Shown piece by piece: positions 17,693-18,422 of a stretch of 64,000 nucleotides of DNA (positions are counted from its first letter, which is position 1; every line of letters begins with the position of its first letter). Made by a program: the position numbers and the translations under genes. The notes under the pieces are model-generated. The model was not told the origin of the DNA and did not search any database. It saw only the letters and a list, made by a program, of their open reading frames with translations. Origin of the DNA: Escherichia phage WPEC6; the sequence record PV763039.1. One strand, 5' to 3'.

Positions 17693-18364
17693 CTATTTAA
17701 TGTTAAGTCTGGCACACAAACGAGAAACAGTTTTAGCATCCCATTTACCACCACGTGCTGTTGCTATTTTCTTACTATTGAATTTTTCAGCAATAGTTTT
17801 GTAAGGTGTATTTAAATCTCTAAGGATCTCCAAACGTTCACGAAATGTCTCTGCAAAAGCGTCGGCTTTAACAGAGTTGTATTCCATTTTTCCTTTTCTA
17901 CGTGCAGCGGCAGTTTTAGGATTAGCACTGCCTAATAAAACACCTTTGCTTTTTGCTACAGCAAGACCCTTTTTAATACGATCAGCAATACCTCTAACTT
18001 CTTGTTCAGCCAGAACAGATAGAAGCTGTATAACCATTTTATCTGCGTCTGGCATGATGGCTATCTTAACATCGATCATCTCCAGAAGAGTTGCTACAGA
18101 GGCGTTGTTACGACCCAAGCGGTCAACTTTAGCTACCAATAAAGTTGCTCCGGTAGCTTTACACATTTCAACCGCTTTGACCAGTTCCTTACGTTGCTTC
18201 CAATCGCCCTTACCCGAATAGTATTCAGAAAATTGACCAATAACTTCAGCATCAGGCACAGAGTCTAAGAAGTAACGGATATCGTTCTCTTGGCTCTCCA
18301 TACCATATTGTGCCTCACCTTTTTTCTGTTTAGAAAGACGACTGTAAACAACAAACTTTTTCAT
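17693..18364 (-). CDS. small serine recombinase (resolvase/invertase family)
   Basis: catalytic-domain motifs VYSRLS (Ser nucleophile region), VAKVDRLGRN, LAEQEVRGIADRIKKG plus short C-terminal HTH-like tail; ATG 18364 after RBS GGAG (track starts at GTG 18370). Confidence 0.7.
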   Translation of the reverse strand: MKKFVVYSRLSKQKKGEAQYGMESQENDIRYFLDSVPDAEVIGQFSEYYSGKGDWKQRKELVKAVEMCKATGATLLVAKVDRLGRNNASVATLLEMIDVKIAIMPDADKMVIQLLSVLAEQEVRGIADRIKKGLAVAKSKGVLLGSANPKTAAARRKGKMEYNSVKADAFAETFRERLEILRDLNTPYKTIAEKFNSKKIATARGGKWDAKTVSRLCARLNIK

Positions 18365-18393
18365 AACCACTCCTAAACTATTACTGTATTCTC

Positions 18394-18422
18394 ACTTTAC
18401 AAAACGAATAAACACTTGTCAA
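18394..18422 (-). promoter_or_regulatory. sigma70-like promoter candidate for the recombinase gene
   Basis: minus-strand TTGACA (plus 18417-18422), 17 bp spacer, TAAAGT (plus 18394-18399). Confidence 0.45.

Follow-up and report, generated by a model that had tools for sequence, protein, structure and literature searches.

Why does an obligately lytic phage keep a serine recombinase, and on which DNA would such an enzyme act? The question is raised by one gene of Escherichia phage WPEC6, which was analysed in a stretch of 64,000 nucleotides (nt) of the sequence record PV763039.1, referred to below as the window. The gene lies on the minus strand at 17693..18364 and encodes a protein of 223 amino acids (aa), the orthologue of phAPEC8_0049. 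Its locus is 97-100% identical at the DNA level to about 70 records of phages of the genus Phapecoctavirus, which belongs to the subfamily Stephanstirmvirinae and comprises the phAPEC8-like virulent myoviruses with genomes of about 150 kb. Membership of the protein in the serine recombinase superfamily is established, and the enzyme appears from its sequence to be catalytically competent. The gene is a conserved core gene of the Stephanstirmvirinae, the obligately lytic myoviruses of phAPEC8 and phi92 type. By analogy with relatives on small plasmids, we tentatively propose that the recombinase may act like a resolvase at one site per phage genome, early in infection, on the phage's own replicating DNA.

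The identity of the protein is supported by profile searches, by its catalytic residues and by a confident structural model, which bear out the serine recombinase predicted in an initial annotation of the window. The open reading frame (ORF) of 223 aa reported there is present, counted from the ATG at 18364 and ending with the TAG stop codon at 17695-17693. The start codon follows 5 nt past the ribosome-binding site AGGAG (18370..18374, minus strand, read from the sequence), whereas the alternative start GTG at 18370 is unlikely because it falls inside this ribosome-binding site. The Pfam family PF00239 (Resolvase) matches aa 5-142 with an E value of 5.2e-18 and 66 bits against a cut-off of 23.3, covering positions 2-144 of the 145 in the profile. 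The phage families PHROG 125 ('DNA invertase', 2.6e-32) and PHROG 95 ('integrase', 7.6e-22, aligned to aa 1-216) were matched as well. The three motifs quoted previously are all in place, VYSRLS at aa 6-11, VAKVDRLGRN at aa 77-86 and LAEQEVRGIADRIKKG at aa 118-133. A loss of catalytic residues was looked for by alignment, and Ser11 (codon 18334-18332), the nucleophile, and the other residues are all present. In an alignment of 61 sequences, with relatives down to about 30% identity, Tyr7, Arg9, Ser11, Gln25, Arg58, Asp81, Arg82 and Arg85 are invariant, and Glu120, Glu122 and Arg129 are conserved in at least 90% of the sequences. The catalytic residues align with Tyr6, Arg8, Ser10, Arg45, Asp67, Arg68, Arg71 and Arg125 of gamma-delta resolvase, whose sequence as aligned is consistent with the PDB alignment.

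The AlphaFold2 model, built on the same 61-sequence alignment, has a mean predicted local distance difference test (pLDDT) score of 88.6 and shows an alpha/beta catalytic fold that leads into the long helix E (aa 1-139, encoded at 17948..18364). The catalytic domain is modelled with strand 2-10, helix 20-35, strand 39-48, helix 59-71, strand 74-77, helix 87-96, strand 99-101 and helix E at 109-139. A C-terminal helical DNA-binding domain (aa 147-223, encoded at 17696..17926) is supported by the model, by PHROG 95 and by a weak Pfam match, and contains five helices at 149-156, 161-172, 175-183, 188-197 and 210-219. Searching solved structures with Foldseek returned Bxb1 integrase, Sin, a pneumococcal resolvase, gamma-delta resolvase and TP901-1 integrase, each with a probability of 1.00, among which Bxb1 integrase gave the longest structural alignment (259 columns). 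When the family profile was compared with solved structures by sequence, Gin was the best PDB match (2e-17), and the Tn3 and gamma-delta resolvases scored about 1e-15.

With its 223 aa and neither zinc ribbon nor coiled coil, the protein has the size of a resolvase or invertase and not that of a large serine integrase, in agreement with the initial annotation. Its C-terminal part had been described as a short helix-turn-helix (HTH)-like tail. A helical domain of DNA-binding type is indeed found there, but with 77 residues and five helices it is not short. These 77 aa resemble the opening helical section of the 'recombinase' domain found in large serine integrases rather than the HTH_7 domain of Tn3 or Hin. 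The Pfam family PF07508 (Recombinase) matches aa 187-216 weakly (E = 0.003, 18.2 bits, under the cut-off of 21.1) and is precomputed for the relatives P0073, P0074, P0076, P0082 and P0087, and the C-terminal motif IA..FN..KI.T.RGG.W....V..L is typical of the start of that domain. The resolvase HTH family was absent from the Pfam matches at E <= 1. The protein looks like a large serine recombinase that has ended after its first DNA-binding subdomain.

The protein was compared with characterised systems. It shares the catalytic fold, the residue set, the size class (about 180-220 aa) and the domain order (catalytic domain, helix E, C-terminal DNA-binding domain) with the Tn3 and gamma-delta resolvases, Sin, Gin and Hin, but is only about 18-28% identical to solved small serine recombinases in the fold search. 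Its loops around helix C, strand 4 and helix E are shorter, leaving a 10-residue gap relative to gamma-delta resolvase, whereas its C-terminal domain is longer than that of the resolvases and resembles PF07508 weakly in place of the resolvase-type HTH. Unlike in these resolvase and invertase systems, the gene is accompanied by neither a res-like array nor paired sites nor an invertible segment. With the large serine recombinases Bxb1, PhiC31, TP901-1, phiMR11, XisF and CcrA/B it shares an N-terminal YxRxS...Q...G.E.Q-type motif and the C-terminal IA..xN..G..T.RGG.W of the first helical part of the recombinase domain, and in a tblastn search aa 3-215 align to the N-terminal part of the phiMR11 integrase gene. 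These enzymes, however, are 450-600 aa long, whereas the window protein lacks the rest of the recombinase domain as well as the zinc ribbon and coiled coil that govern attP/attB choice and directionality in large integrases; no attP/attB pair or prophage state was found for it.

Assignment to an established group was then judged by model scores. The NCBIfam equivalog models were all far under their cut-offs, with 32.5 of 175 bits for YneB (NF049883), 27.4 of 375 for XisF and 22.6 of 272 for Mpi (NF009949), and the CcrA and CcrB models also scored far below theirs. The N-terminal MerR-like domain of the IS607 type is absent, the catalytic domain beginning at residue 2, and NF033518 was unmatched. 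None of the PADLOC defence families was matched at E <= 0.01. For the groups of Tn3/Sin resolvases, Gin/Hin/Mpi invertases, large serine integrases, IS607 and YneB, at least one of the defining features tested is lacking in each case. The protein belongs instead to a large, mostly uncharacterised subfamily of about 220 aa, for which a profile search of 1.84 billion cluster representatives returned 3,743 at E <= 1e-30; most of the best 150 representatives are 215-240 aa long and match from end to end. We found no experimentally characterised member of this family in the literature. Among the best family matches, P0094-P0106 include several proteins of 400-900 aa with two to seven stretches that match the 220-aa profile; these long proteins may be tandem or fused recombinase copies, or fusions made in gene calling.

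The gene is strongly conserved in lytic phages. By tblastn the protein is at least 99% identical in 62 records, in nearly all of them 100%. The nucleotide differences are all synonymous (13 against SKA64, 16 against Ro121c4YLVW and 5 against Mt1B1_P17), whereas four neighbouring genes show non-synonymous changes in seven of eight comparisons. The recombinase is under strong purifying selection. The window from 1 to 25000 is matched at 95% or more by 64 records, and the same number hold the gene at 80% aa identity or more; the gene therefore appears to be universal in Phapecoctavirus. It was found in every phAPEC8-like and phi92-like lytic coliphage examined. Orthologues share 67-75% aa identity in phiWec186 and Citrobacter phage Tr1, about 57% in the phi92-like genus Justusliebigvirus, 51-55% in Klebsiella phages KP13-16 and KP13-26, 35-38% in Shewanella and Vibrio myoviruses and about 30% in ICP1 (two isolate records among the matches listed). 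A frameshifted copy in Schickermooser (NC_048196, L021, 11215-11955) was considered as a sign of dispensability and rejected. It carries six small indels within about 350 bp, the upstream DUF7202 gene included, and these are probably a local sequencing error and not a true pseudogene. The DNA of the gene and its promoter has no match in 5,426 complete E. coli genomes, and no close relative was found in 185,579 species-representative genomes, where a single unrelated match of 25% identity was returned. Because no copy occurs in the 5,426 E. coli genomes, the recombinase does not act as a lysogeny integrase. The annotations of the Phapecoctavirus genome, that of a virulent myovirus, likewise contain no repressor or lysogeny module, as had been noted for the window.

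The gene itself is already known and is annotated in many public records, where it is called 'putative recombinase', 'serine recombinase (gin)', 'resolvase', 'DNA invertase' or 'hypothetical protein'. Many other records carry the wrong label 'methionine ABC transporter ATP-binding protein' or 'putative ABC transporter ATP-binding protein', for example the orthologues in NC_052662 (gp191), OR062524, OR352955 and LR597654. No functional study of the recombinase was found in the literature. The SKA64 paper makes the bare assertion that the protein keeps 'concatemers as single genome'. According to the ESCO paper, no recombinase was predicted in ESCO5 and ESCO37; the gene is nonetheless present in ESCO5 by tblastn, and for ESCO37 the record shows 98.2% DNA identity at the locus.

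What might the enzyme do in such a phage? A hint is given by the replicons on which its relatives are found. Full-length relatives of 35-39% identity occur on 124 plasmids (tblastn), 104 of which are non-mobilizable. The 124 include replicons of 5.8-6.5 kb from Klebsiella, Marinovum and Synechococcus that encode little beyond replication and partition genes. For a serine recombinase on a small plasmid, the usual role is multimer resolution at a single site. The 5.8-kb Klebsiella plasmid carries a 34-bp palindrome with a 2-bp centre, located 34 bp upstream of the gene of the relative. Other relatives, possibly with the function of integrases, are found at the end of a Pseudomonas aeruginosa prophage and in an element that encodes a primase and has a small terminase-like gene. 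The 'recombinase family protein' group of about 220 aa, including those of Klebsiella pIIIF7SW-P1_2, Marinovum pMaD11 and Synechococcus pIITB3_2, has the same architecture as the window protein. These plasmid and prophage members, however, reside on replicons for which multimer resolution or integration makes sense, whereas the window protein belongs to an obligately lytic phage of 150 kb.

The initial annotation placed a promoter directly upstream on the minus strand, and the sigma-70-type sequence TTGACA-17-TAAAGT is present there at 18394..18422, with the -35 hexamer at 18422-18417, a 17-nt spacer and the -10 hexamer at 18399-18394 (10 of 12 consensus positions in the scan). Taken alone, such a match is weak evidence, because pairs of promoter-like hexamers are no commoner in the region (63 found) than in shuffled sequence (54.2 expected). 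The predicted promoter gains weight because it lies in a 64-bp intergenic gap, resembles the other early promoters and recurs upstream of the orthologue in nine of the ten diverged lineages read: this window, phiWec186, Tr1, alia, KP13-26, KP13-16 (where it comes after a terminator), Shewanella phage 1/40, ICP1 and the metagenomic locus L029. In the tenth, Vibrio phage 1.063.O, no promoter was seen upstream of the orthologue. About 20 early promoters of Mt1B1_P17 consist of an A/T-rich stretch, TTGACA, a spacer of 16-17 nt and TAAAGT, TAAACT or TAAGAT. The sequence upstream of the recombinase fits this class, apart from lacking the downstream stem-loop element GTAGGGCGG, and is thus predicted to be an ordinary early promoter of this phage. 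Its description as the gene's own promoter holds for its position just upstream; it is probably shared and serves several genes, because the next ORF, which has a ribosome-binding site of its own, begins 8 nt past the end of the recombinase gene, and on the minus strand a terminator-like hairpin is not reached until 16025-16005. As a separate observation, a repeated early promoter followed by a conserved stem-loop GTAGGGCGGCAATGGTGCCGC was found at 28997-29031 and 30225-30259 of the window and at 1.7-12.3 kb of Mt1B1_P17 (L018). This promoter and stem-loop unit stands upstream of about 20 small genes in a hypervariable region and resembles the promoter-stem-loop cassettes of T4 type.

A recombination site was searched for around the gene and in 150 kb of Mt1B1_P17, a near-complete genome. 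The only dyad near the gene is AATAAATACCTTGACAAGTGTTTATT, a 26-bp imperfect palindrome at 18407..18432 that overlaps the -35 hexamer and has nine of 12 half-site positions complementary. Its left arm is the A/T-rich stretch common to other early promoters. Further copies were absent both from the window, at up to three mismatches and with or without a free centre, and from the 150 kb of Mt1B1_P17, at up to seven mismatches, matches with eight mismatches being at the level of shuffled sequence. As a recombination site AATAAATACCTTGACAAGTGTTTATT was rejected, and the palindrome is probably fortuitous. Neither flanking direct or inverted repeats nor a repeated motif were found near the gene, and no long inverted repeats surround the nearby segments. 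A res array with crossover and accessory sites was not found beside the gene, where there is the 64-bp gap with one chance-level dyad. The paired palindromic sites that the initial annotation proposed to look for were thus found neither in the window nor in the 150 kb of Mt1B1_P17.

Comparison across genomes requires that the window itself be read correctly. Relative to about 64 normal Phapecoctavirus records, all of which show the same breakpoints, the window is chimeric at 28885/28886 and 30263/30264. Window 1-28626 corresponds to Mt1B1_P17 120591-150000 in the same orientation, 28886-30264 to Mt1B1_P17 6794-5412 in reverse and 30264-64000 to 93619-59864 in reverse; over window 1-25000 the two phages are 99.5% identical. 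The only records that are 100% identical are scrambled too, namely PV659873 (WPEC1; L011, L012), PV691511 (WPEC2) and PV682947 (WPEC4), 'complete genomes' of 156-161 kb in which blocks sharing 100% identity with the window follow one another in an unusual order and orientation. Their rearrangements were considered as recombination isomers and rejected, the junctions carrying duplicated fragments of 72-80 bp and 153-159 bp. These lengths, about k+1 and 2k+1 for an assembler k of 77, suggest concatenated contigs and not biology. The apparent divergent early/structural junction near 30 kb of the window is therefore an artefact, because the normal genomes show breakpoints there and the junctions in the WPEC records read as contig overlaps. 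The recombinase finding is unaffected, because the gene lies well inside the collinear block 1-28626.

No inversion isomers were found in the approximately 113 kb compared across about 60 independent Phapecoctavirus genomes, a screen outside which lay Mt1B1_P17 50001-59864 and 93620-120590; the part outside the screen is put at about 33 kb, and the genome that was either uninformative or outside it at about 38 kb. Window 1-25000, 30264-50000 and 50001-64000 and Mt1B1_P17 25001-50000 each occur as a single collinear place, and the segment 50001-64000, which includes the tail-fibre genes, was found at 134 places in 133 records. Collinearity was broken only at record ends, at the junctions of the window itself and in the scrambled WPEC records. 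The first 25,000 nt of Mt1B1_P17 are hypervariable and internally repetitive, and since the self-match alone gives three places the screen is uninformative there. Absence of isomers and of candidate sites had been named as grounds for doubting the recombinase. None was found, yet this weighs only against inversion and not against resolution at one site. Within the tail-fibre ORF (61838-63862) we also observed collagen-like Gly-X-Y repeats with a 9-nt period at 62801-63238 (plus strand), such as KGEKGD from AAAGGAGAGAAGGGGGAC. An identity of only about 92-94% to other Phapecoctavirus genomes marks this stretch as a variable receptor-binding region.

The gene does not occupy the same place in different genera. 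In alia, KP13-26 and KP13-16, the promoter and the gene lie between homologues of two small genes, in a cluster with HslV, a DNA methyltransferase and a 'HisRS-like' gene. In Phapecoctavirus these two small genes are adjacent (2014-2217 and 2263-2457 of the window), and between them lies the empty site, 2218-2262, at which Justusliebigvirus and the two Klebsiella phages have the orthologue together with its promoter. In the window this site is occupied by the terminator-like hairpin ACTCCCTTTTCGGAGGGAGT and, after it, a run of T. The recombinase of the window is 15.5 kb away from this empty site and on the opposite strand, and in phiWec186 and Tr1 the flanking genes are different again. A clean cassette boundary was sought by comparing the filled sites (alia and KP13-26) with the empty ones (Phapecoctavirus) and was rejected, as neither target duplication nor terminal repeats were seen. 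A DprA-like gene of Smf/SLOG type stands shortly downstream of the recombinase in Shewanella phage 1/40 and in L029 (4511-5056), and five genes downstream in alia; it is found at 4440-5021 of the window (plus strand) and also at L009 3879-4451. This recurrent neighbour probably reflects inherited gene order. In Phapecoctavirus the DprA-like gene is still in the old cluster and the recombinase elsewhere. Because the DprA-like gene is downstream in Shewanella phage 1/40, L029 and alia, the comparison suggests that Justusliebigvirus retains the ancestral position and that the gene changed its place in the lineage of Phapecoctavirus. The relocation is a weak sign of mobility and equally compatible with ordinary mosaicism of the early region.

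Close to the recombinase in the window, the upstream neighbour beyond the 64-bp gap is a DUF7202 gene. A functional partner among the neighbours was looked for and rejected, all of them belonging to PHROG families of unknown function or to DUF7202. On the minus strand the recombinase is surrounded by at least six small early genes that are paralogues of one another, at 15641-16027, 16919-17317 and 19901-20227 and near 20.7, 23.9 and 28.6 kb. The six share the C-terminal motif ...PF...R[VIL]xW[VI][KR][DE][RHK][VIA], and two of them matched phrog_2510 (unknown function) when tested.

Based on these comparisons, we propose that the recombinase may work like a resolvase at a single site in each phage genome, a reading that we favour tentatively and rate at somewhat below an even chance. 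From the chemistry of the family, dimers would bind a dyad-symmetric site through the C-terminal domain, and two site-bound dimers would synapse into a tetramer. Ser11 would then make cuts staggered by 2 bp in all four strands and become attached through 5'-phosphoserine links, and one half of the complex would rotate by 180° before the strands are rejoined. Action early in infection on replicating phage DNA, at one putative site per genome, is the least certain step. Dimers or head-to-tail concatemers could thereby be converted to monomer circles, or the terminally redundant incoming DNA could be cyclised, and the phage would gain more templates for replication. The proposal follows from the relatives on small plasmids, where multimer resolution is usual, and action at one site is the only classical role that fits the finding of neither a second site nor inversion isomers. 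A functional analogy is offered by Cre-lox of phage P1, a phage recombinase with one site per genome, which cyclises terminally redundant DNA and resolves dimers; Cre is, however, a tyrosine recombinase, P1 is temperate, and no lox-like site was identified in this phage.

Several observations weigh against action as a one-site resolvase. No recombination site was identified, and the only dyad near the gene is at chance level, an equally good one appearing in 47% of shuffles of the upstream 150 nt (P = 0.47); its right arm is not conserved in phiWec186. Significant dyads in promoters were seen in only two of 14 upstream regions, those of KP13-26 (P = 0.005) and Shewanella phage 1/40 (P = 0.025), where they overlap the -10 hexamer. 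The 64-bp upstream gap is too short for a res site of Tn3 type with accessory sites, which takes about 120 bp. A resolvase is of no obvious use to a phage that packages its DNA from concatemers, and the analogy with plasmids is one of gene context alone. Since the gene stands at different loci across genera, a linked site would need to have moved along with it. The initial annotation had left three substrates on offer, and of these the resolution of multimers or concatemers is the most plausible in view of the small-plasmid relatives, inversion is disfavoured by the lack of isomers, and self-mobilisation finds weak support in the different loci.

The failure to find a pair of sites in the phage genome would also be expected if the enzyme acted on DNA other than that of the phage, at a host site or on a phage satellite, so as to re-integrate, excise or scramble the satellite or a defence island. 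Expression immediately upon infection, as the promoter suggests, would suit such a role, and so would the relatives at the edge of a P. aeruginosa prophage and in the primase-carrying element. Barth et al. (PMC10055350) matched 224 putative E. coli satellites to Inny, Muut and Mt1B1_P17 and described an arms race involving Odn-like nucleases, with a subset of the satellites carrying a 'novel serine recombinase'; most of those satellites, however, use tyrosine integrases (PMC10055350). No direct evidence points to such a target, the absence of a DNA homologue from the 5,426 E. coli genomes argues against a recent capture from a coliphage satellite, and a protein that is near-constant (mostly 100% identical) across phages from very different hosts fits a constant target better than a fast arms race. 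We consider this explanation unlikely. A broader version, in which the recombinase is a conserved early weapon or tool of the lytic myovirus clade with a substrate that is not a classical phage res or inversion site, could take two forms. In one, host or satellite DNA is the target, within the conflict between phage and satellites already proposed for Mt1B1_P17, Inny and Muut; in the other, the enzyme recombines the many direct repeats of promoter plus stem-loop in the hypervariable early region and so shuffles early gene cassettes in an integron-like manner. This broader version seems quite unlikely. The gene could further be a selfish, moron-like cassette of promoter and gene that moves now or moved once, possibly driven by itself and of little benefit to the phage. 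Its loci do differ between alia, KP13-26 and KP13-16 on the one side and Phapecoctavirus on the other, with phiWec186 and Tr1 differing too, the promoter travels with the gene, and in the ICP1 record 2017_DRC_48, one of the two isolate records among the matches listed, the gene is situated within a block of newly called genes. Such a cassette would hardly be universal in its genus, under purifying selection stronger than that on its neighbours, in single copy at the same locus in all Phapecoctavirus records, without flanking repeats or a clean insertion junction, and without copies in host genomes; the order from recombinase to DprA-like gene common to Shewanella phage 1/40, L029 and Justusliebigvirus argues for vertical descent. 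This makes a selfish cassette decidedly unlikely.

The remaining explanations would change the function of the protein itself. A mainly regulatory role, as an autorepressor or a repressor of early genes for which recombination is dispensable, is suggested by the dyads over the -10 hexamers of KP13-26 and Shewanella phage 1/40 and recalls the Tn3-family resolvases, which are known autorepressors. It is nevertheless very unlikely, as the window has no significant operator-like dyad and all phage lineages at 30-57% identity retain the catalytic residues, whether invariant or at least 90% conserved, which is unexpected if catalysis can be dispensed with. A DNA invertase of the Gin, Cin, Hin or Mpi type, flipping a segment or a promoter as in a tail-fibre switch, is what several records imply by 'DNA invertase' or 'gin', and Gin is the best PDB match of the family profile. 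Against such an enzyme stand the collinearity of about 60 genomes over the roughly 113 kb compared, with the tail-fibre region at 134 places in 133 records, and the lack of long inverted repeats flanking segments near the gene, while the weak full-length similarity to the Mpi master invertase model amounts to 22.6 bits against a cut-off of 272. We regard an invertase as highly improbable. An integrase that provides a cryptic lysogenic or integrated state is improbable in the extreme. Its appeal comes from the likeness of the C-terminal domain to that of large serine integrases and from the relatives at prophage ends, but the gene and promoter are absent from the 5,426 E. coli genomes, no close relative was found in the 185,579 species genomes, no repressor or lysogeny module appears in the genome annotations, and the zinc-ribbon and coiled-coil domains with which large serine integrases select att sites are absent from this protein of 223 aa.

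The finding bears on the use of these phages, since phAPEC8- and phi92-type phages are widely isolated as candidates for therapy and biocontrol, and the labels 'recombinase', 'integrase' and 'invertase' are a red flag in safety screens. Some reassurance is given by a universal core gene of lytic phages with no prophage copy in thousands of E. coli genomes and with the att-selection domains missing. The annotation should be read neither as a marker of lysogeny nor as an ABC transporter. If its site were found, a compact enzyme of 223 aa might interest genome engineers. For the biology of the phages, the puzzle is that an obligately lytic phage that packages from concatemers has retained an apparently active recombinase, near-invariant and, among about 62 isolates, mostly 100% identical. 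Its explanation could bring to light a step in how large lytic phages replicate that has so far gone unrecognised, or a new kind of interaction with the DNA of hosts or satellites.

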